Source of the DNA: a candidate division WOR-3 bacterium
GTDB lineage: Bacteria; Hydrothermota; Hydrothermia; LBFQ01
Assembly: GCA_027050205.1 (NCBI GenBank)
Contig: JALUCS010000015.1
Location: forward strand, 1 to 56,933
Reading direction: 5' to 3'
Length of the DNA stretch: 56,933 nucleotides
Under the pieces are notes generated by a model. The model made no database searches and was not told where the DNA came from. It worked only from the letters and a program-made list of their open reading frames with translations. Position 1 is the first letter of the stretch; every line of letters begins with the position of its first letter. The position numbers and the translations under genes are program-made. Below are positions 1-9,503 of the stretch, piece by piece.

Positions 1-835
1 GGTTGTAGCGGGAGAGTCCGGAGCCGTCAAAGACGTAGGCGGTGGTGTCCATCCCGAGGTTCCCCATGAACTCCCTGAAGTACCTTCCGGCCCTCGTTAT
101 GCCCCCGGAGTAGTGGGCGACCATCATATCCATGGCGAAGTTTATGCTGTAGGTCAGGGTGGGACGCAGGAGCCTTATGAGGGGAGGGCTGTAGAGGGTG
201 TCTACGTCCTCAAAGCCGGCGAGGGAGAACCTGTCGCTCTCCTGTACCTCTATCTTGACCCTCTTCCCCTCCCTTATCGCCGCTCTCCGGATAACGTACT
301 TGACGAAGGCGAGGGGGTCGGAGTACCTGTAGCGTCTCCTTGGAATCAGGGCGACCGTGTCCCCGAAGACTACGGAGTCTAAGGGTAGGCTTCTGTCCAA
401 CGATATTCCGAGGGAGGTGTCGGGCTTTACGATACCCCGGTTTATGGAGACGGGGGTTATGGGGGAGACCCTGTGGAACTTTATGTCGTCCCACGCCCAG
501 CCGTAGCCGTACCTGTCTCCCCAACGCGGGAAGGAGACGAGGACGTAGGCCGTCTTCCCCCTCATCCTTCGCACCTTCTCCGAGACTACGGAGTCCAACT
601 TGCGGAAGGATAGGGTGTAATCCCCAGTGAAGCGGAGGACGAGGGCGTTCCCCTTCGTGGCGACGTACGTCGGTATCCTGTAATTTGGGCCGAGGGTGTT
701 TAGGAGTACGACCGCCCACATGGACTTGAGGGTGGAGGCTGGGACGACGTACTCGTTCTCACCGCGGAGCCTTACCGGCTCACAGGTCCCCTCCCGGAGC
801 CACACCTCCGAGAAGTAGGAGAGAAGTACCAGCAC
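1..835 (-). CDS. dacB: D-alanyl-D-alanine carboxypeptidase/endopeptidase PBP4 (peptidase S13), 3' end runs off the window
   Basis: Not in the ORF track. Manual translation from GTG at 835 gives ...PASTLK (SxxK)...GWAWDD...FDGSGLSRYN, the S13 family motifs. TAAAAT lies 8 nt upstream. Confidence 0.88.
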   Translation of the reverse strand, partial: MLVLLSYFSEVWLREGTCEPVRLRGENEYVVPASTLKSMWAVVLLNTLGPNYRIPTYVATKGNALVLRFTGDYTLSFRKLDSVVSEKVRRMRGKTAYVLVSFPRWGDRYGYGWAWDDIKFHRVSPITPVSINRGIVKPDTSLGISLDRSLPLDSVVFGDTVALIPRRRYRYSDPLAFVKYVIRRAAIREGKRVKIEVQESDRFSLAGFEDVDTLYSPPLIRLLRPTLTYSINFAMDMMVAHYSGGITRAGRYFREFMGNLGMDTTAYVFDGSGLSRYN

Positions 836-855
836 AGGGTAGTATTTTAAGGCCT

Positions 856-2016
856 TCAGTAGACCAGGGCGAGGAACCCCCGCAGGTACTCCGCATCGGG
901 GAAGTAGACCGGCACCGGATGGTCGGGGGACTGGTGCAGCCTGTAGAGGAGCTTGACCTCCCGCATGAGCCTCTTGGCCGCCCGGCTCATCTCCCCCTCA
1001 AGGAGGGAGAAGTCAATGTGGCGGGAGCAGGAGAATACCGCCAGGAGTCCCCCTTCGTCTAATAGCCTCAAGGCCCTGTCAAAGAGGGTGAAGTACCCTC
1101 TCTTGGCGCCAGAAACGTTCCTCCCCTTGGCAAAGGCCGGGGGATCAAGCACTATACCGTCAAACCTCTCGTGGGCCAGGAGAAAGCTGTCCAGCATATC
1201 AAACACGTTGGCCGCAAAGGTCTCAACCGACTTCCTGTGGAAACCGTTGGCCTGAACGTTCTCCTTCAGTATATCAAGAGCCTCCCCGTCCTCGTCCACG
1301 GCTATGACCCTCTCAACCCCGTACTTCAGAAGGTGCAGGGTGAAGCCCCCCGTGTAGGAGAAGGCGTCCAGCACCCTCTTCCTCCCCCTCATCGTCCTAC
1401 CCACCACCTCCCAGTTCAGCCTCTGGTCAAGGTACAGTCCCGTCTTTTGTCCCCCGATGGGAACCTTAAACTTCAGGCCGTTTATCTCCACCCACACCTC
1501 CGAGACCTCCTCGTCGTAGAAGTGCCACCCCTCGTAAGGCTCAAGGCCCTCCTGCCTACGGGCGTAGGAGTCGCTCTTCTCGTACAACCACCTGTAGCCC
1601 GCCATCCTGAAGCCCTCAACTATCTCCCTCCGCAACCTGTCCGCCCCGTAGGAGGATATCTGAATGACGGCCCCATCCCCATAGACGTCGGCTATTATTC
1701 CGGGCATGTTGTCGGCCTCGGCGAAGAAGAGCCTGTAGGCGCTCCGGAAACCGAGGAGGTCCTCCCTCTCGTACTTCGCCCTCTTGATGCGGGAATACAC
1801 CAAACCCGCCGTGAAGTCCTCCTCCTCCCTGCTGTAGAAACGGAGGGCGAGCTTACCCTCCGGGTTGTAGAAGGCGCTCCCAAAGAACTTCCCTTTGATG
1901 TAAACGGCCGCCTCAAACCCCTCCCCTATCACCCCCTTTATCCGGTCCCTGAATATCCACGGATGAAGGCCGTAGTCGGAGGGTTTCCCCTTAAGATTGA
2001 CCCGTATCCTCGGCAC
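856..2016 (-). CDS. rlmI: 23S rRNA m5C1962-type SAM-dependent methyltransferase (RlmI family)
   Basis: N-terminal PUA-like HPWIF, then GQKTGLYLDQR, LDAFSYTGGF, LDPPAF and FSCS motifs. Confidence 0.85.
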   Translation of the reverse strand: MPRIRVNLKGKPSDYGLHPWIFRDRIKGVIGEGFEAAVYIKGKFFGSAFYNPEGKLALRFYSREEEDFTAGLVYSRIKRAKYEREDLLGFRSAYRLFFAEADNMPGIIADVYGDGAVIQISSYGADRLRREIVEGFRMAGYRWLYEKSDSYARRQEGLEPYEGWHFYDEEVSEVWVEINGLKFKVPIGGQKTGLYLDQRLNWEVVGRTMRGRKRVLDAFSYTGGFTLHLLKYGVERVIAVDEDGEALDILKENVQANGFHRKSVETFAANVFDMLDSFLLAHERFDGIVLDPPAFAKGRNVSGAKRGYFTLFDRALRLLDEGGLLAVFSCSRHIDFSLLEGEMSRAAKRLMREVKLLYRLHQSPDHPVPVYFPDAEYLRGFLALVY

Positions 2017-2095
2017 GGCGGTATTCTACCCTTGCCGTATGTACCGGTGTTGAAGCCGTGACCACGGAAAGGAGCGGCGGGTTTATAATAACCAT

Positions 2096-2740
2096 ATGCG
2101 TTTGTTCAGGACCGCATTAATCGTCATTTTATCCTCAATTTTCCTGCCCCTATGCGTAAGCACCCCCATAAATTACGACACCGCCCGGATACCCGATGGA
2201 CAGGCGTCCCTGAAGGTGGGTGCTGGGGCGCAGGGCTTTAAAGGGAGTTATACGGTTTGTGGAAGCCCGTACCATTACAGCGGAGGAGAGGTCAGGGGGG
2301 ACGTTCAGGTGGGGTACGGCATCCGGGGGATGGCTGAAGTGGGGATTCAAGGGGGAGTAGCCGTCGGCGAATATGTGGATAAAAGAGAGAACGGTACGGT
2401 GGCCGACAGCGGGGTCTTCCTTCAGGCGGACGCCTATCCCTACCTCAAGGTGGGGATACCCGGTAAGAGGTTCCGGGCGACGTTGAAGGTGGCTGCTGGC
2501 GGGGGTCTGACCTCCCTGGGAGAGGGAGGGGGGTACCCCATGGCCTACGCCGACCTCCTCCTGGGCATAGAGAGTCCAGAGGTCCTGACTCTTGGCTTCA
2601 GGGTCTCCCCTATTGACGGTCTCCTCGCCATTGGGAGCCTCCACTTCGGTCTCTACGTCCTCTCCGTTATGGCTGGCGGAAATCCGGATTTGGAGGGATA
2701 CACCCTCTACGTGGGCTTCGGTCTGGCACTGTGGCATTAA
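2096..2740 (+). CDS. Hypothetical exported/outer-membrane beta-barrel-like protein, possible lipoprotein
   Basis: Signal-like N-terminus with Cys20, Gly/aromatic-rich alternating beta-strands, C-terminal YVGFGLALWH. TATAAT lies 6 nt upstream. Confidence 0.6.
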   Translation: MRLFRTALIVILSSIFLPLCVSTPINYDTARIPDGQASLKVGAGAQGFKGSYTVCGSPYHYSGGEVRGDVQVGYGIRGMAEVGIQGGVAVGEYVDKRENGTVADSGVFLQADAYPYLKVGIPGKRFRATLKVAAGGGLTSLGEGGGYPMAYADLLLGIESPEVLTLGFRVSPIDGLLAIGSLHFGLYVLSVMAGGNPDLEGYTLYVGFGLALWH

Positions 2741-2764
2741 CCGGGGTATTCCCGTACGGAAGGT

Positions 2765-2867
2765 GGGTATTACGTTGATAAGATGAGGGTTGCTTTCATC
2801 CTTATCAAACGGAAAATTTTAAAGATGATCCTTCAGCTTACGAAAGCAACTCTTTACATTCCCTAAA
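2765..2867 (+). repeat. Copy A of a dispersed degenerate intergenic repeat
   Basis: 2817-2867 matches 19747-19797 at 42/51 nt without gaps. Starts with GGGTATTACGTTGATAAG, a motif shared with 16262, 19688 and 6410 (minus). Confidence 0.7.
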
Positions 2868-2900
2868 ACTTCACATTGTTAAACGGTGAACGGAATCCCT

Positions 2901-3464
2901 TCAGTCCTTCCCGTACTCCCTCCGGGCTACTAAGATGGCGTGCCTCTCTATCAACTTAAGGGACATACCCGTGGATTCGCTGACGGCGTCAAGGTAGGAG
3001 TACATATAGCCAGCTGCTATCAGGGTTGCTATGGCGTCCGTAACGTGCTTAAAGGCCCCGTATATCCTAACGGCCTCGTCGGACGGGAAGGCCTCCAGGA
3101 CCTTGTGGAAGAAGACCCTCTGTACCAGAGACATAGCCGACAGCATGAACTCGTTGGGTATCCCCCGCACGACGTGGGAGAGTCCCACCTTCCTGAACTG
3201 CCAATCCCAGAAGGCATCGTCGTACTCACCGCTCACAACCTTCCGGTACCACACCTTCAGGGCCTCCTCCCTCTCCGGTCTCTCTCCCTCGCGGAAGACG
3301 GAGGCCGTCGGCCCGTAGGAGAAGAGGGTGTCGTAGAAGGCTTTGGCGAAGAACTCGTCCCACTCCTTGAGTCTATCGGCGTACCTCTTCAGGACCTCGG
3401 CGTACGGCTCTATGGGACCGGAGATGGCCTCAAAGTCCCTCAAGACCTGCCGGTGGTCCTTCAT
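2901..3464 (-). CDS. Protoglobin / stand-alone globin-sensor domain protein
   Basis: Globin-coupled-sensor pattern: FYD (B10 Tyr), W..V.SG.YD..FW, VGLSHV (proximal His F8). No output domain. Confidence 0.85.
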   Translation of the reverse strand: MKDHRQVLRDFEAISGPIEPYAEVLKRYADRLKEWDEFFAKAFYDTLFSYGPTASVFREGERPEREEALKVWYRKVVSGEYDDAFWDWQFRKVGLSHVVRGIPNEFMLSAMSLVQRVFFHKVLEAFPSDEAVRIYGAFKHVTDAIATLIAAGYMYSYLDAVSESTGMSLKLIERHAILVARREYGKD

Positions 3465-3850
3465 ATCCCCCCACCTCCAACGTTTATCATATCCTTCAAT
3501 TCCCTCATCAACTCCGGTAGCATCTGGCGGATCTTCAGGAGGATGAGGCCAGCAGTTATGTCCTTGACGGTTAGGACGCCGAGGGCGGCTATATCCTCCA
3601 CGTGATACACGAACATCCTCCCATCCTGCGCCGTTATCAGGATCTCCTCCGGTTCTCCCATACTCACCATCTTCGTGGAGCGGGCGGCCAAACTGGCTAA
3701 ACTTGCTATGACCGCCGCCTGACGCTCAACGTCGGTTAAGTGCGCCGGAGCATACGCTATCGGGAAACCGTCCAAGGTCACCAGAACCGCCCCCTTTATC
3801 TCCGGGGAACGGCTAACCAGATCGTGAAGAAGGCTCTCTAACCTATCCAT
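3461..3850 (-). CDS. Roadblock/LC7 domain protein (MglB-like)
   Basis: IKGAVLVTLDGFPIA...AAVIAS...EEILITAQDG...LGVLT...GLILL is the Roadblock signature. Adjacent to the GTPase. Confidence 0.9.
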   Translation of the reverse strand: MDRLESLLHDLVSRSPEIKGAVLVTLDGFPIAYAPAHLTDVERQAAVIASLASLAARSTKMVSMGEPEEILITAQDGRMFVYHVEDIAALGVLTVKDITAGLILLKIRQMLPELMRELKDMINVGGGGI

Positions 3851-4368
3851 ACCTTACCTCCTTTTTGTTTCATAAGTTCAAGGAAGCGTATCAGGAACTC
3901 CCTGACGCTCCCCTCATCCGTCGCTACCAACCCTATCACCGCCCACTCCGGTAGGCCGAAGTAGGCTGCTATGAAATCCGGCGGCCATGCCCCGTCAAGG
4001 TCCTGCTTCGTTGCCCCTACGATGAAGGGGACGTCGTACCGGCTCATGTAGAATTGGAGCATACGCTTGGCCTTCGGAAGGCTGGAGGGGTCGCTGCTGT
4101 CCACCAAGAAGACGTACCCCGTCGCTCCCCTCATCAGGTCCTCCCACATAAAGGAGAACCTCTCCTGTCCGGGGGTACCGAAAAGTCGGATTCGCACGTC
4201 TCCGAGATTTACCGCCCCAAAGTCCAAGGCTACGGTCGTGGTGGGTTTGCCTATATCCACCGTACTCCTCTCCTCGGTTTCCACTACGGGTATCTGGGAG
4301 ATCGCCTTTATGAAGGTGGTCTTCCCCACCCCCACGGGTCCCGTCACCACTATCTTTATCTCGGCCAT
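3838..4368 (-). CDS. Small Ras-like GTPase (MglA / conservon CvnD type)
   Basis: G1 GPVGVGKTT, TTVALDFG, G3 GTPGQERF, G4 TKQD. Confidence 0.92.
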   Translation of the reverse strand: MAEIKIVVTGPVGVGKTTFIKAISQIPVVETEERSTVDIGKPTTTVALDFGAVNLGDVRIRLFGTPGQERFSFMWEDLMRGATGYVFLVDSSDPSSLPKAKRMLQFYMSRYDVPFIVGATKQDLDGAWPPDFIAAYFGLPEWAVIGLVATDEGSVREFLIRFLELMKQKGGKVWIG

Positions 4369-4976
4369 TTCCAGAACCTCTTGAGGAACCTGATGGCCCT
4401 GTCTATGAGGCCGGGACTCGCCTTGCTCCGGGCTATCACCTTGGGTCTAACGTAGCCAAGGCTCTCAAGGACGGCGAGGTACCTCTGCACCGTCTCTAAG
4501 GTCAGGCCCGTTTCCACACTTATGTTGCGGCTACTCGCCCCCCTGACGAGGTGGGGACGGGCAACCGTTACGAAGTCCCTAAGAGGAGGGGGAAGCTCTC
4601 CGTTTTCTCCAGCGATCTCGTAAACGGTGTCGGGATGCACGGGGTTGGCTATACGTAGGCCGTTCAGTTCGTCCTTGAAGGTAACTACGGACAGTACGAA
4701 GGTCTCAACGGGTACGGAGAAATCGCTCACCTCCGGCTCCCCGGGTACGTACCGGAACTCCCCCCTAGTACTCTTCAGGAATCGGAAGACGATACCCCTC
4801 ACCACGAAGAGGTTGCTGACCCTCTCGCCATTGAAATCCACGCCGACGACGTTACCGTTCCGGACGTATATGTGGAGGGTCCCCTCCTCCGAATCCACGA
4901 TGAGGACGCCGCTCTTCTTCCCTACAAACTGCAAGACCTCAAGGAGGCCGAAGTTCTCAAGCGATCCTTGAACCAT
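4356..4976 (-). CDS. DUF4388 (PATAN-like) domain protein with C-terminal winged-HTH-like segment
   Basis: GSLENFGLLEVLQFV..KSGVL...IYVRNGNVV is the DUF4388 pattern. SRNISVETGLTLETVQRYLAVLESLGYV is HTH-like. Confidence 0.8.
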   Translation of the reverse strand: MVQGSLENFGLLEVLQFVGKKSGVLIVDSEEGTLHIYVRNGNVVGVDFNGERVSNLFVVRGIVFRFLKSTRGEFRYVPGEPEVSDFSVPVETFVLSVVTFKDELNGLRIANPVHPDTVYEIAGENGELPPPLRDFVTVARPHLVRGASSRNISVETGLTLETVQRYLAVLESLGYVRPKVIARSKASPGLIDRAIRFLKRFWKWPR

Positions 4977-5091
4977 AACCCCGCTCTATATTGTATAGCC
5001 GTTTGGGTATCTCCTGCCACACGTTTTGGAGGGTACGCCCAGAGGGGAGGACGTTCTCGTATCTTAGGAGTTAAAAGGAGAGGTGCGTCCG

Positions 5092-5114
5092 TATAATACT
5101 CGGCTTAAAGGAGG
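5092..5114 (+). promoter_or_regulatory. -10 box (TATAAT) and Shine-Dalgarno (AGGAGG) of korB
   Basis: TATAAT at 5092-5097 and AGGAGG at 5109-5114, before ATG 5122. Confidence 0.65.
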
Positions 5115-5121
5115 TCCAAGG

Positions 5122-6009
5122 ATGGTAGAAGTTAAGGTTACCCTGAAGGACTACGACTCTCACAAGCCCACGTGGTGTCCGGGATGTGGGGACTACGCTG
5201 TCCTCCTCGCCCTAAAGCGGGCGCTTGTCAACCTCAACATCCCACCCCACCAGGTGGTGGTGGTGTCCGGTATAGGGTGCAGTGGTAAGATAAGCGACTA
5301 CGTGAAATCCTACGGATACCACGGCATACACGGCAGGGTCCTTCCCACGGCCACGGCCGTTAAGATAGCCAACCCCACCCTTACGGTCATAGGGGCCGGC
5401 GGAGACGGGGACGGGTACGCCATAGGAGGAAACCACTTCCTCCACGTGATGCGCCGCAACCCCAACATCACTTACATCGTTATGAACAACATGATATACG
5501 GCCTCACGAAGGGTCAAACTTCCCCCACGTCCCTGCGCGGTTTCAAGAGCGGCACCTCTCCCTACGGCTCCGTTGAGGGGAACGTTGAACCCCTTTACGT
5601 CGCCCTCTCTATGGGGGCGCCCTTCGTAGCCCGTGGGTTTTCCGGTGATCCTAAGCGTCTCGCCGAGATCCTGACCGAGGCCATAAAGTTCAAGGGGTTC
5701 TCCTTCGTGGATATATACTCCCCCTGCGTGACCTTCAACCGCTTCAACACCTACGATTGGTTCAAGGAGAGGGTACAGTACATAGACGAGAACGGTCCCC
5801 TGCCGAGCCGCATAGAGGCTATGAAGGTCGTCTCCGATACCTGGGACAGGGGCAAGCTCCCGCTGGGCATAATCTACAAGGAGGAGGGGCTACCCACGTA
5901 CGAGGAGCTTCTCCTTAGGGGGAAGGACACCGTTCCGGTTTATGACGACATAACGTCCGACGTCTGGAAGGAGAAGATCAAGAAGATCATAGAGGAGAAC
6001 TTCGTATAA
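5122..6009 (+). CDS. korB: 2-oxoacid:ferredoxin oxidoreductase beta subunit
   Basis: WCPGCGD, SGIGCS, HGR, GGDGD TPP motif, YGLTKGQTSPT, SPCVTFN. Start moved to the SD-preceded ATG. Confidence 0.93.
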   Translation: MVEVKVTLKDYDSHKPTWCPGCGDYAVLLALKRALVNLNIPPHQVVVVSGIGCSGKISDYVKSYGYHGIHGRVLPTATAVKIANPTLTVIGAGGDGDGYAIGGNHFLHVMRRNPNITYIVMNNMIYGLTKGQTSPTSLRGFKSGTSPYGSVEGNVEPLYVALSMGAPFVARGFSGDPKRLAEILTEAIKFKGFSFVDIYSPCVTFNRFNTYDWFKERVQYIDENGPLPSRIEAMKVVSDTWDRGKLPLGIIYKEEGLPTYEELLLRGKDTVPVYDDITSDVWKEKIKKIIEENFV

Positions 6010-6015
6010 ACCAAC

Positions 6016-6043
6016 GGGGAGGGGTCGCGGGCCATCCCTCCCC
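6016..6043 (+). terminator. Hairpin after korB
   Basis: GGGGAGGG...CCCTCCCC inverted repeat just after the stop. No clear U-tract. Confidence 0.4.
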
Positions 6044-6311
6044 CTTCCCAAGGGTGGATTGATATATATTCCTGCGGATTGATGATTTCTGTAGAGCCGG
6101 TTTTAAGCGGGGGTATCTGACGGGTAGGACGATTGCTCCCCTTTTCTCGTATTCGGAACCGGTATTCGGCTTATGGAGTGACTCCCCTTTCAAAGGGTCG
6201 TTGGAGCGAAGTTCCTTGTGCTGCAAATGGCTGGACTTGAACCCGTATAGGTGCCTTCCGTCAATTGTACCTCGCCTCTTCTGAAATCCGGTTCCGGAAA
6301 GGAGTTGAACA

Positions 6312-6410
6312 CGATGCCGTTCAAAATCTTGCGACAAGGTTGTAACGATCCGAAATGCGACTACCAATTTTTATAGGGACAGATGGATCCTTCTTATCGG
6401 TGTAATACCT
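6312..6410 (-). repeat. Inverted partial copy of the dispersed intergenic repeat
   Basis: Reverse complement reads AGGTATTACACCGATAAG...GATTTTGAACGGCATC, resembling 2765 and 16404-16420 (GAATTTTGAACGGCGTC). Confidence 0.45.
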
Positions 6411-6865
6411 CGGAACCTTGGACCTGGATTGATTTTTAGGGAAATGGGGCGTAAGAGACGTCTTTCAAAACCGCAACTGCGTAAGTATCACCTTTCTGAA
6501 GATCGACCTCCAGTTTTTGCAAGTGGCATCAGCCGGTAAGCAAAGTATCATCCTGTCGGTGAATTGTACATGCAGTACCCGAACCCTTCAATTACGCCCT
6601 TTCATAACGGTTGTGGTATAAGGTTAAAGCGAAATCGGCAGCTTAACGGTGTGACCATAGGTCCGGGTTCATATTCTTTCTTTTATGAAAGTTGCAAACA
6701 ATGGGATAACTATACCAAAAATTGAAGGTTATCTGAACCGACAGGTTTTGAAGTGCCTACGAAAGGATCCGCCGATTAAGGTTTCAAGGATAGTCAAAAG
6801 GTGGTGTATCATCCTAACCCCTCCAAATGGAACGTTATATTGTGAAAAAACACCGTAAGACGGTA

Positions 6866-7231
6866 TCACCGCGGTACCGGAACGGCCCTTGTGATGTCTA
6901 TCTCCCGGTGATCCCCCTCCTCCTTTATCTGGATGAGTAGCTCCGTACCCCGGTTTATGGTGTATATCTGGCCGGCGGCGGCGCTGTCCGTCCCGTTGGC
7001 CCTCCGCAGGTAGAAGGAGACGACCGAATCGTAGGGGGACTTCGTCGTCAGGACGTAGGTTATAACCCGCCTCCCTCTGGACTCGCTCACTACCTTGCCC
7101 TTTACTCTGGCACCGGGGTACATCGGCACCCCGACCTCCTGCGCGTCGTACCTCGCCCCCTTCTCCACCTCAACCTTGGACGTGGAGCAGGACAGAAAGG
7201 CTACGAGCAGCAGGATGACGTGCCATCTCAA
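6866..7231 (-). CDS. Hypothetical lipoprotein
   Basis: Lipobox FLSC and a VPMYPGA motif. Abuts plsY. Confidence 0.7.
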   Translation of the reverse strand: MRWHVILLLVAFLSCSTSKVEVEKGARYDAQEVGVPMYPGARVKGKVVSESRGRRVITYVLTTKSPYDSVVSFYLRRANGTDSAAAGQIYTINRGTELLIQIKEEGDHREIDITRAVPVPR

Positions 7232-7232
7232 A

Positions 7233-7874
7233 TTATCCCTCCTTCTTACCCCATATCTTCGGCTCCTTACCGGAGAGGAGCCGCTTGATGTTTCCGTAGT
7301 GCCTTATCCAGATGAAGAGGACGACGAGGCCGGACACGACCACGAAGGGGAGGGAGTGCCTGTTGGGGTCAAAGAGGAGTACCCATAGGAAGACGGCGAG
7401 GGAACCGAGGAGGGAACCGAGGGATACCCAACCGGTCAGTAGGACGACGGTAAGCCACACCACCAGACCCACCAGTATGCCTACGGGGGTCAGGGCGGCA
7501 AAGGCTCCCACGGAGGTGGCCACCCCCTTGCCTCCCTTGAAGCCGAGGAAGGGGGAGAACATGTGGCCCAGGACGGGTGCTATGGCCGTGACCATGGCCA
7601 GCTCTATGTTGTAGGGGACGAGGAGGCGAACGATGAAGACGGGGATGAAGCCCTTAAGGGCGTCCAATACGAAGACGAGGGTCCCCCACTTCAGGCCCAG
7701 GGTCCGGGCGACGTTCGTCGCCCCCACGTTCCCGCTTCCCACCTTCCGTATGTCTATGCCCGCCACCGCCTTGGCCACTATGTAGGCCCACGGTATCCCG
7801 CCAAGGAGGAAGCCGAGGACGAAGATCAGGGCATACACGTAAGGCTGGAAGTTGGTAGGTATGCTATCCCACAT
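7233..7874 (-). CDS. plsY: Glycerol-3-phosphate acyltransferase PlsY
   Basis: DIRKVGSGNVGATN, GHMFSPFLGFKGGKGVAT, RHYGNIKRL motifs. Confidence 0.95.
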   Translation of the reverse strand: MWDSIPTNFQPYVYALIFVLGFLLGGIPWAYIVAKAVAGIDIRKVGSGNVGATNVARTLGLKWGTLVFVLDALKGFIPVFIVRLLVPYNIELAMVTAIAPVLGHMFSPFLGFKGGKGVATSVGAFAALTPVGILVGLVVWLTVVLLTGWVSLGSLLGSLAVFLWVLLFDPNRHSLPFVVVSGLVVLFIWIRHYGNIKRLLSGKEPKIWGKKEG

Positions 7875-8808
7875 CTACCACCTCCCTGTACCACTCAAGG
7901 GTCCTACGCAGGCCCTCCTCAAACGGCACCTTCGGCTCCCACTTCAGGAGCCTCTTCGCCTTGGTTATGTCGGGTTTCCTGCGTTTGGGGTCGTCCTGTG
8001 GTAGGGGCAGGAAGGTGAAGTTCTCCGGGACGCCGTAGATCTTGACGACGAGCTTCGCCACCTCCAGGACAGTCCTCTCGTCGGGGTTCCCGAGATTCAC
8101 CACCTCACCGTCCAGACCCTCGTAGGTCAGGAGCCTGAAGAGACCCTCCACCATGTCCGAGACGTAGCAGAAGCTCCGGGTCTGGCTCCCGTCCCCGTAT
8201 ATGGTCAATGGCCTCCCCGTCAGGGCCTGATAGGCGAAGTTGGGGATTATCCTGCCGTCTGCTACGTCCATAAAGGGGCCGTAGGTGTTGAAGATCCTCG
8301 CTATCCTGACCGGCACCTTCTCGTACCTGTAGTATGCCATCGTTATGGCCTCGGCGAACCTCTTCCCCTCGTCGTAGACGCTCCTCGGCCCTATGGGATT
8401 CACGTTGCCCCAGTAGTCCTCCGGCTGGGGATGGACGAGGGGGTCGCCGTAGACCTCGGACGTTGAGGCGAGGAGGAAGGTCGCCCCGGTCTCCTTCGCC
8501 AGATCCAGGAGGTTCTTGACGCCGATGGAGTTGACTAGCATCGTGTCTATGGGTAGGGAGAGGTACTTCTTGGGGCTGGCCGGGGAGGCGAGGTTGATTA
8601 TGTAATCGTAATCTCCCTTCGGCACCTCCTCCGTTATGTCCATCTCGTAAAATGTGAATTTTGGATGGTGAAGGTACCTCTCCACGTTCTCCCTCTTCCC
8701 GGTTGAAAAGTTGTCCGCACCCACCACCTCCCAACCGAGGTCAAGGAGATAACCCGTCAGGTGCGTCCCTATGAAACCCGCATTACCCACTACCAACGCT
8801 TTGGGCAT
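7864..8808 (-). CDS. UDP-glucuronate decarboxylase family SDR epimerase/dehydratase
   Basis: GNAGFIG, ASPASP, STSEVYGDP, YDEGKR, RIFNTYGP. Start set at MPKALVV (TAGAAT 8 nt upstream). Confidence 0.9.
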   Translation of the reverse strand: MPKALVVGNAGFIGTHLTGYLLDLGWEVVGADNFSTGKRENVERYLHHPKFTFYEMDITEEVPKGDYDYIINLASPASPKKYLSLPIDTMLVNSIGVKNLLDLAKETGATFLLASTSEVYGDPLVHPQPEDYWGNVNPIGPRSVYDEGKRFAEAITMAYYRYEKVPVRIARIFNTYGPFMDVADGRIIPNFAYQALTGRPLTIYGDGSQTRSFCYVSDMVEGLFRLLTYEGLDGEVVNLGNPDERTVLEVAKLVVKIYGVPENFTFLPLPQDDPKRRKPDITKAKRLLKWEPKVPFEEGLRRTLEWYREVVDVG

Positions 8809-8819
8809 AAGGGCGGATT

Positions 8820-9503
8820 CTACGGTGGTAATCCGTCCGTACGAAAAATTAGGGCCTTCGCGTGCCGCTTCAGGACGTCCAGGGGTACCTTCCGCTCCTC
8901 GGAGTACCTTAGGAGCATCTCCTCCCTGTGGAGGAGCCACCAAGCGAGGGAGTTCCCCACCCTCGTCTCAACTTCCTCTGCCAACTCCTCCCTCACCACC
9001 CATACGGCCAGACTCAAGGGCTTCCCCTTAACCTCACTGTATGCAGCCGCTAGGTTGTAGGTATGGGTAAAAGGCCCGTAGTCCCCCCTCAAGACGGTGT
9101 CGCCGTACAGGATGTGCGCATCCACATCGGGAGAGATGGTGGAGAAGACCTCTATCCGAACCTCGCTCAAGTTGAGGCCAAACTTGGCGGTGAGGACGCC
9201 CTCAAGGGAGTGGAGTACGTTCTCGTACCCCTTTACGATACCGAGGGTGCGGATCTCCACGATGGGCCTGGAGGAGACCAGGACCAGATCCAGAGCCTCA
9301 CCACCGAGGGAGACCCCGTAGGGGAGGGGGACGTACCCCTCCGGCAAGGCCCGCAGGAGGGTACAGGGGTAGGGGGTGGCGTCTATACGCCCCGACATCA
9401 TAACCGTCCTCACGGCGGAGAGGGGAAGGGGAACCCTCCTACCCCGAAGCCTTACGTAAAAGGGGGAGAAGTCGAACTCCCTTATCTCCCCGAAGGTCAT
9501 CAA
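8820..9503 (-). CDS. MqnA/MqnD-family (chorismate dehydratase-like) protein, divergent
   Basis: Layout G.I.....PFY...G.ID...GVS.GG....VLVSSRPI...DAHILYGD...LAVWVVR resembles MqnA. Confidence 0.55.
   Translation of the reverse strand: MMTFGEIREFDFSPFYVRLRGRRVPLPLSAVRTVMMSGRIDATPYPCTLLRALPEGYVPLPYGVSLGGEALDLVLVSSRPIVEIRTLGIVKGYENVLHSLEGVLTAKFGLNLSEVRIEVFSTISPDVDAHILYGDTVLRGDYGPFTHTYNLAAAYSEVKGKPLSLAVWVVREELAEEVETRVGNSLAWWLLHREEMLLRYSEERKVPLDVLKRHAKALIFRTDGLPP

Follow-up and report, generated by a model that had tools for sequence, protein, structure and literature searches.

A conserved globin-Roadblock-GTPase-PATAN gene cassette in a candidate division WOR-3 bacterium, possibly a haem-regulated input to an MglA-family GTPase

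The window analysed here is a stretch of 56,933 nucleotides (nt) from a candidate division WOR-3 bacterium (assembly GCA_027050205.1, contig JALUCS010000015.1), and its coordinates are used throughout. Four minus-strand open reading frames (ORFs) within positions 4976-2901 encode, in transcription order, a PATAN (DUF4388) protein, a small GTPase, a Roadblock/LC7 protein and a globin. We consider it rather probable that they form a conserved signalling cassette whose input is a stand-alone sensor-type globin, acting through the Roadblock protein on an MglA-family GTPase outside group 1, with the PATAN/winged-helix protein as the likely effector of the GTPase. From this globin the GTPase switch probably receives a signal of the oxygen type or of haem. 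The cassette recurs across several phyla while its flanks change, and it is no chance neighbourhood. Its most constant pair is Roadblock and globin. A preliminary description of this stretch, made from the letters alone, had listed four overlapping genes, and this was borne out in every particular (ORFs, overlaps, families and motifs). The features of the cassette are as follows, with lengths in amino acids (aa).

Positions 4356-4976, minus strand: gene 1, PATAN (DUF4388) domain with a predicted winged helix and a C-terminal amphipathic helix, 206 aa
Positions 4665-4970, minus strand: PATAN/DUF4388 domain of gene 1, residues 3-104
Positions 4443-4583, minus strand: predicted winged helix-turn-helix of gene 1, residues about 132-178
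Positions 4365-4412, minus strand: amphipathic C-terminal tail GLIDRAIRFLKRFWKW of gene 1, residues 189-204
Positions 3838-4368, minus strand: gene 2, MglA-family small GTPase, 176 aa
Motifs of the GTPase, minus strand: G1 GPVGVGKT at 4318-4341, G2 PTTT within 4219-4245, G3 GTPGQ at 4165-4179, G4 TKQD at 4000-4011
Positions 3461-3850, minus strand: gene 3, Roadblock/LC7 protein, 129 aa, with an Asp-Gly pair at residues 27-28
Positions 2901-3464, minus strand: gene 4, stand-alone sensor-lineage globin, 187 aa, with an additional C-terminal helix (residues 169-185)
Positions 3333-3335, minus strand: codon of Tyr44, the predicted distal Tyr (B10), from the alignment with 2w31
Positions 3174-3176, minus strand: codon of His97, the predicted proximal haem ligand (F8), from the alignment with 2w31

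Conservation of the neighbourhood was followed first within the genus, in 40 relatives (6 congeneric and 34 others) whose loci were read by tblastn and ORF lists; genomes and loci carry our own labels (G0xx and L0xx), G000 being the genome of the window. The globin is present in 7/7 genus genomes, the window's own included, and in 0/34 other relatives. A Roadblock gene lies directly before the globin gene at all seven congeneric loci outside the window, with the GTPase at five and the PATAN gene at four; when the window is counted the figures become 8/8, 6/8 and 5/8. The Roadblock and globin genes in the genus overlap by 4 nt.

The arrangement is also found far from the genus. Ten distant loci from a species-genome collection were read by phmmer over all frames and by Pfam, and six of them have a Roadblock gene directly upstream of the globin gene (three Thermus, one Trueperaceae, Millisia and one Propionibacteriaceae metagenome-assembled genome, or MAG). 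The gene order varies among them: GTPase-Roadblock-globin in Thermus sp. JCM 17653, Roadblock-globin-PATAN-GTPase in a Thermus MAG, PATAN-GTPase-globin-Roadblock-globin in Thermus caliditerrae, PATAN-GTPase-Roadblock-(unknown)-Roadblock-globin in the Trueperaceae MAG, Roadblock-globin followed at a distance by GTPase-Roadblock in Millisia brevis, and Roadblock-globin in the Propionibacteriaceae MAG. The other four loci, three from Anaerolineae and one from Chloroflexales, are without Roadblock. Since Table S2 of Wuichet and Sogaard-Andersen (2015, PMC4316618) gives T. thermophilus HB8 and HB27 group 1 MglA only, the cassette has to be sought in other Thermus species. In a sample of 81 genomes of the Thermus order, 32 had a globin match at E <= 1e-10, and 22 strong and 8 weaker loci were compared. 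Roadblock is directly upstream of the globin at 15/22 strong loci, 10 of the 22 having all four genes in the window's order, and is missing at 7/22, one of which (L035) has only 227 base pairs (bp) of upstream sequence. The eight weaker loci belong to other globin clades and show no Roadblock adjacency (0/8). Roadblock adjacency was seen at 8/38 metagenome loci, with the full order at 5/38; most of the others are Anaerolineae-like and several are too short to judge.

To relate these loci to each other, 82 distinct globins were placed on a quick maximum-likelihood tree. Roadblock is adjacent in 35 of its rows, not adjacent in 35 and undecided in 12, some of the 'not adjacent' rows being second globins inside Roadblock cassettes. 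The window's clade of nine rows is adjacent throughout (Shimodaira-Hasegawa-like approximate likelihood ratio test, SH-aLRT, 100). Adjacency also occurs in a Thermus/Actinomycetota clade, in one Anaerolineae-like row (L081) and in a distant Trueperaceae row, and the tree requires at least seven changes of adjacency state. As kin in the tree share labels, these counts speak for recurrence and not for a rate. Two actinobacterial globins nest inside the Thermus clade, and a survey of Actinomycetes gave a match at E <= 1e-20 in 1/301 genomes, the starting genome alone, the cassette being sporadic there; together these two results fit sporadic transfer. The preliminary description had made its proposal depend on the globin lying beside the GTPase in other genomes, and the cassette was found in the genus, in Thermus relatives, and in single genomes of Trueperaceae and Actinomycetota. 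The tie that it drew between globin and GTPase stands as linkage of the globin to Roadblock, GTPase and PATAN genes, through recurrence and gene fusions; the tightest pair is Roadblock and globin, not GTPase and globin.

Some of these loci have further features. In T. caliditerrae (L025:2763-7129), two globin genes flank the Roadblock gene and a PAS-GGDEF-EAL gene follows directly. At another Thermus locus (L060), the cassette is preceded by an EAL gene, a cytochrome c, two OmpR-type regulators and a kinase-TPR protein. The neighbours at L025 and L060 may tie the cassette to cyclic di-GMP. In the Trueperaceae MAG, a 172-aa ORF with no Pfam match (L029:3683-4201) lies between two nearly identical Roadblock genes of the cassette.

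The globin matches the Pfam family Protoglobin (PF11563) with 44.9 bits against a cut-off of 25. This is the only Pfam domain of the 187-aa protein, which agrees with the earlier statement that the globin has no output domain of its own, and the cassette globin is the only Protoglobin-family gene in the genome. A word-indexed search found 15 relatives; at E <= 0.001 an exhaustive profile search yielded 948 cluster representatives, 74 of which reached E <= 1e-30. Against the PDB, the profile matched the Geobacter sensor globin (2w31, E 1.4e-13) and the Thermosynechococcus elongatus globin (8h17, E 2.6e-12). Tyr44 aligns with the tyrosine of FYDYLL in 2w31 and His97 with the second histidine of IGHAHV (counted as residues 40 and 93). 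Tyr44, Phe57 and His97 are invariant in the 15-sequence globin alignment (A1). The preliminary description had already assigned a B10 Tyr and an F8 His to this globin, and Tyr44 and His97 are the residues in question. The family as a whole is less uniform: among 106 single-domain sequences (105 representatives and the window globin), the F8 position is His in 93 and the B10 position is Tyr in 78. The E11 position of the window globin is Leu69. In 2w31 we take His93 to be F8 and His66 to be E11; the title of Pesce and colleagues' 2009 paper, in the reference list of PMC4476040, names an E11/F8 bis-histidyl pair.

The AlphaFold2 (AF2) model of the globin has a predicted local distance difference test score (pLDDT) of 91.2. 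In Foldseek it came closest to AfGcHK, GsGCS, 8h17 and HemAT, haem sensor domains without exception, at target-normalised template-modelling (TM) scores of 0.83-0.87. Chains of the Methanosarcina acetivorans protoglobin (Pgb) rank below all of these sensor domains (target-normalised TM about 0.59-0.69, root mean square deviation 3.1-4.4). 'Protoglobin' is therefore a Pfam label, and 'stand-alone sensor-lineage globin' is the more fitting name for the protein. The additional C-terminal helix is a trait of the family and is common to 8h17. No transmitter domain is fused to the window globin, which thus differs from the chimeric globin-coupled sensors, and elsewhere in the family the fusion partners include histidine kinase (HK), methyl-accepting chemotaxis protein (MCP), GAF-SpoIIE, hemerythrin and PATAN domains. 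According to excerpts of PMC1457004, Vinogradov and colleagues entered this stand-alone class under bacterial Pgbs, in a list that names Thermus and Thermosynechococcus among others.

From its fold and the retained His F8 and Tyr B10, we infer that the globin binds haem. It is also possible that the cassette uses a haem-free globin fold that senses another signal or serves as a scaffold, like the non-haem globin domain of Bacillus RsbR. Non-haem sensor globins such as RsbR are indeed described in excerpts of PMC4476040, and genes of tetrapyrrole synthesis were not found in the genus. However, RsbR lacks the F8 His according to the same excerpts, while His97, Tyr44 and Phe57 are invariant in A1, His is kept at F8 in 93/106 family sequences and the nearest structures all bear haem. 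We regard a haem-free role as scarcely probable.

Where the haem would come from is a separate question. Searches of G000 (93.5% complete) turned up no ALAD, ferrochelatase, cytochrome bd or haem-copper oxidase (COX1). Across the genus ALAD was detected in 0/7 genomes, against 11/34 among the other relatives. G000 nevertheless has five cytochrome c domain matches. Given these cytochrome c domains and the retained His97, haem is presumably in use and must be obtained. Judged by its MAGs, the genus seems to use haem without synthesising it, as a haem auxotroph would. The apparent lack of haem synthesis keeps alive a reading with the same wiring and another signal, in which the globin reports haem availability (apo versus holo) or the redox state of the iron and tunes the cell to scavenged haem. 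The missing synthesis genes, the cytochrome c domains and the conserved His97 all suit it. On the other side, a control genome of the group that holds the cassette-bearing Thermus relatives has both ALAD and ferrochelatase, so haem scarcity is not general. No TonB receptor reached the haem-receptor cut-off, and some haem genes may be hidden by MAG incompleteness. A Tyr at B10 with a Leu at E11 is the distal pocket of gas-binding sensor globins such as HemAT and AfGcHK. A signal of haem availability or iron redox is unlikely in our judgement, though it deserves serious attention.

The GTPase matches Pfam ATP_bind_1 (65.7 bits), Arf (42.3) and Ras (37.8) as well as NCBIfam small_GTP (45.2 bits), and its best solved sequence match is T. 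thermophilus MglA (3t12, E 1.7e-9). The motifs quoted in the preliminary description were located at residues 42-50 (PTTTVALDF) and 64-68 (GTPGQ). The GTPase carries Thr (PTTT) where MglA has its arginine finger, and GTPGQ in place of TVPGQ. By the motif criteria of PMC4316618 it belongs to MglA groups 2-5, outside group 1. The label 'MglA GTPase' given earlier was correct for the family, to which the best solved match belongs, but not for MglA proper, since the arginine finger and TVPGQ of group 1 are lacking. Nor does the GTPase have the NxFD in G4 that marks conservon group 2 (CvnD); its G4 is TKQD. Our own reading is that it belongs to group 5, from the taxa and the PATAN neighbourhoods in excerpts of PMC4316618, where members of groups 1 and 5 are occasionally found near PATAN genes.

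The Roadblock protein matches Pfam Robl_LC7 with 48.3 bits (cut-off 23). Asp27 and Gly28, the Asp-Gly pair of group 2-5 partners, are invariant in its alignment (A2). The Roadblock profile matches CvnB5 (3leq, E 6.9e-16), Rv3364c and other Roadblock entries, and the nearest solved sequences are of the CvnB type; no chain named MglB was among the profile's 10 structure matches. The genome contains 10 Roadblock and 3 DUF4388 matches in all, with five Roadblock/LC7 paralogues in tandem on another contig (G000:C63:25490-27759), so cross-talk is possible.

Gene fusions give further evidence on how the four proteins may be connected. At L012:1309-2370 and L011:5311-6378, in the congeneric genomes G002 and G004, the PATAN, helix-turn-helix (HTH) and GTPase parts form one ORF, of 353 and 355 aa, respectively. 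A metagenomic protein (P0139) joins FHA, DUF4388 and a Protoglobin-family globin. A fusion of a globin of another lineage with Roadblock/LC7, HGbRL of Methylacidiphilum, has been published (excerpts of PMC4476040). Within the present globin lineage, a Roadblock profile found no fused Roadblock in 164 family proteins (best 150 representatives included), and Pfam found none in 24 longer family proteins. Taken with the constant adjacency of Roadblock and globin genes, the fusions make a physical chain of globin, Roadblock, GTPase and PATAN protein the most economical reading of these sequences.

The PATAN domain of gene 1 is assigned by a DUF4388 match of 47.7 bits (cut-off 25, E 1.9e-12). Residues 146-177 match HTH families below the Pfam cut-offs (HTH_IclR 18.9 bits, cut-off 22; HTH_24 18.1 bits, cut-off 21.9). 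In the AF2 model (pLDDT 85.8) the N-terminal domain is of mixed alpha/beta structure; residues 132-178 form three helices and a strand and are followed by a disordered linker and a last helix. The Foldseek matches of the winged helix are weak (2yu3, probability 0.95; the DeoR DNA-binding domain, target-normalised TM 0.59). The amphipathic tail claimed in the preliminary description was confirmed at residues 189-204: no other segment of the protein reaches the helical hydrophobic moment of GLIDRAIRFLKRFWKW (0.81-0.97). Its motif G-L-x-x-R-hydrophobic-L-x-x-L is retained in 6/6 unfused homologues, which come from Thermus, Trueperaceae and the window's genus. In the two PATAN-GTPase fusions the GTPase occupies the place of the tail, which hints that the tail normally serves the association of the PATAN protein with the GTPase.

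A type IV pilus motor, with which cyanobacterial PATAN proteins are connected, was considered as the output and set aside. No T2SSE/PilB-family ATPase was found in the window's genome by a search that was positive in 13/14 well-known control genomes, and a pilus-motor role is therefore unlikely in this organism.

We propose the following sequence of events. Ligand binding or a change of redox state would alter the conformation of the haem-bound globin, as happens in globin-coupled sensors. The globin would contact the Roadblock dimer and alter its action on the GTPase, which may resemble that of a GTPase-activating protein (GAP) or a guanine nucleotide exchange factor (GEF). The nucleotide state of the GTPase would then set the activity or the location of the PATAN/winged-helix protein. 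The latter might work on DNA by means of its winged helix; alternatively, its amphipathic tail could engage a membrane or a partner. Overall, the cassette would amount to a globin-coupled sensor whose parts are separate proteins and whose output is a G-protein switch. A fuller account, in which the cassette is a haem-regulated Ras-like switch spread by transfer, its Roadblock-globin core gating the GTPase and the PATAN effector, and in which a vent bacterium unable to make haem may read both scavenged haem and gas, is offered tentatively, as one that could well be right but on which we would not yet rely.

Several observations weigh against a globin-driven GTPase switch. Two congeneric loci, L014 (behind ileS, a second copy in genome G005) and L016, have the Roadblock-globin pair alone with no GTPase nearby, so the GTPase is not obligatory in cis. 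Half of the judged globins (35/70) have no adjacent Roadblock, among them the Anaerolineae clade that is nearest to the window's clade by identity (45-51%); one Anaerolineaceae genome of this kind has a Roadblock gene elsewhere. The winged helix is a prediction below the Pfam cut-offs, and Foldseek with the whole PATAN model returned nothing at E <= 0.001. The supply of haem is uncertain, with neither ALAD nor ferrochelatase found. Finally, the direction of the signal is assumed, and the globin could be the target instead of the input.

This last point leads to a reading in which the globin is a client: the Roadblock protein and the GTPase would load, place or regulate a globin that does chemistry, such as nitric oxide (NO) detoxification or haem storage. 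The pairs at L014 and L016, which also lack a nearby PATAN gene, would be expected of such a client, as would the tandem globins in some Thermus cassettes (L025, L032 and L097) and the ATP_bind_1 family as the best Pfam match of the GTPase. However, the globin is closest in fold and sequence to sensor domains and not to globins of the NO-dioxygenase type, the GTPase bears the motifs that mark the MglA switch family, and the PATAN-globin fusion P0139 and HGbRL suit signalling better. We therefore consider a client globin quite improbable.

Alternatively, the globin could be a passenger, functionally unconnected, in a PATAN-MglA-MglB neighbourhood of known type. Such neighbourhoods without a globin are described in excerpts of PMC4316618, and many members of the globin family stand alone. 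This is difficult to reconcile with the repeated occurrence of Roadblock-globin adjacency (four clades or more, several phyla), with the 4-nt overlaps in the genus, with flanks that are not conserved and with the known fusions, and we give it very little weight. A globin that signals through Roadblock to the GTPase remains the reading that we prefer.

A search of full-text literature, which did not cover subscription journals, returned no description of a globin-Roadblock-GTPase-PATAN cassette among the matches listed, and HGbRL of Methylacidiphilum infernorum was the only relevant precedent. The preliminary description had known of no characterised mechanism for this combination; the cassette was indeed not found in the literature searched, but with HGbRL it is not without precedent. 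The comparison with HGbRL draws on excerpts of Teh et al. (2015, PMC4476040), who propose that a ligand-driven movement of the globin is relayed to Roadblock. Like the cassette, HGbRL combines a Roadblock/LC7 domain with a globin, in its case a haem globin, and its authors note an MglA/MglB-like pair elsewhere in the Methylacidiphilum genome. Unlike the separate proteins of the window, HGbRL is a single polypeptide, and its globin is of the flavohaemoglobin-type lineage (38% identical to HGbI) whereas ours is of the sensor lineage. The operon described in those excerpts contains a methyltransferase and neither a GTPase nor a PATAN gene, in contrast to the GTPase/PATAN operon of the window. HGbRL was reported to be unique to one genus, whereas the cassette occurs in several phyla.

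The actinobacterial conservons CvnA-D (Komatsu et al. 2006, as summarised in excerpts of PMC4316618) also consist of four genes, with a Roadblock protein of the CvnB type, a GTPase with GTPGQ, a sensor and a small fourth protein. Matches to a histidine-kinase-like (HATPase) CvnA or a DUF742 CvnC were absent from the four window proteins at E <= 0.01. A soluble globin and a PATAN/winged-helix protein replace CvnA and CvnC in the window, and the GTPases differ in G4, as given above. The MglA/MglB systems, including the group 5 MglA-MglB-PATAN neighbourhoods (excerpts of Wuichet and Sogaard-Andersen 2015, PMC4316618, and Makarova et al. 2006 cited there), share with the cassette a Ras-like GTPase, a Roadblock partner and a nearby PATAN gene; the window GTPase differs in having neither the intrinsic arginine finger nor the TVPGQ of group 1. 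A globin is not mentioned in the text of that paper or in its supplement files 2 and 3. In the PatA-type PATAN-REC proteins of cyanobacteria (excerpts of bioRxiv 10.1101/2021.06.11.447907), PATAN/DUF4388 is likewise a protein-interaction module in polarity and signalling, but it is combined with a receiver domain and binds the type IV pilus ATPase PilB1, whereas the PATAN domain of the window is joined to a predicted winged helix.

On the sensor side, the globin-coupled sensors HemAT, AfGcHK and GsGCS share with the window globin the sensor-globin fold, the His at F8 and the Tyr at B10. They differ in having a fused transmitter, in place of which we propose an output in trans by Roadblock and GTPase. 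The single-domain bacterial 'protoglobins' (T. elongatus Tlr1989, PDB 8h17; T. thermophilus Pgb, in excerpts of PMC1457004) share the fold, and 8h17 also the C-terminal helix. Excerpts of a globin review (PMC7475203) describe stand-alone bacterial protoglobins only as a class. Thus PATAN genes beside MglA/MglB genes, conservons, stand-alone bacterial protoglobins and one globin::Roadblock fusion are known already. What would be new here, as we infer it from these genes, is a globin-coupled sensor made of separate proteins with a small GTPase as its output.

Few inputs are known for the widespread MglA-family GTPases outside cell polarity (groups 2-5 and conservons), and a haem sensor, if confirmed, would be a defined and easily handled one. 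The role of stand-alone bacterial 'protoglobins', catalogued by 2006 (excerpts of PMC1457004), would become testable. An output through a small GTPase would be a new transmitter class for globin-coupled sensing. Some cultured Thermus species have the same four genes, which brings genetics and thermostable proteins for biochemistry and structures within reach.

The genes of the window cassette are tightly packed, with overlaps of 13, 13 and 4 nt from each to the next, the 4-nt one being ATGA. Shine-Dalgarno-like runs precede the starts of the Roadblock gene (AAGGAGGT) and the globin gene (GGAGGTGGGG). A putative promoter-like element lies upstream of the PATAN gene.

Positions 4990-5019, minus strand: promoter-like element, TGGCAG (5019-5014), 18-nt spacer and TACAAT (4995-4990), 13 nt from the PATAN start

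Its -10 hexamer (TACAAT/TATAAT) is aligned in 5/5 congeneric upstream regions. A simple consensus promoter scan did not call the element, and no promoter or terminator could be assigned to the operon by that scan. A search for operators at 4950-5110 found no inverted repeats of at least 10 nt, and Rfam and transfer RNA (tRNA) scans of 2700-7000 and 2000-7300 gave zero matches.

Divergent from the operon is korB (5083-6009), which encodes the beta subunit of a 2-oxoacid:ferredoxin oxidoreductase (TIGR02177, 334.9 bits, cut-off 261.9). The connection of the cassette with korB that the preliminary description had drawn was not upheld, korB lying beside the cassette at 0/7 congeneric loci. A functional tie was rejected: korB, RlmI and a 214-aa ORF of the window are all absent (0/7) from these loci by tblastn. 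No alpha subunit gene adjoins korB within positions 1-9000. The stretch at 6010-6865 has no plus-strand ORF of at least 60 aa starting inside it and no Rfam or tRNA match, and these ~850 bp have a lower G+C content (0.48-0.49). The 214-aa ORF (2096-2740), for which no Pfam or NCBIfam match was found, is convergent with the globin gene and encodes a hydrophobic N-terminus.

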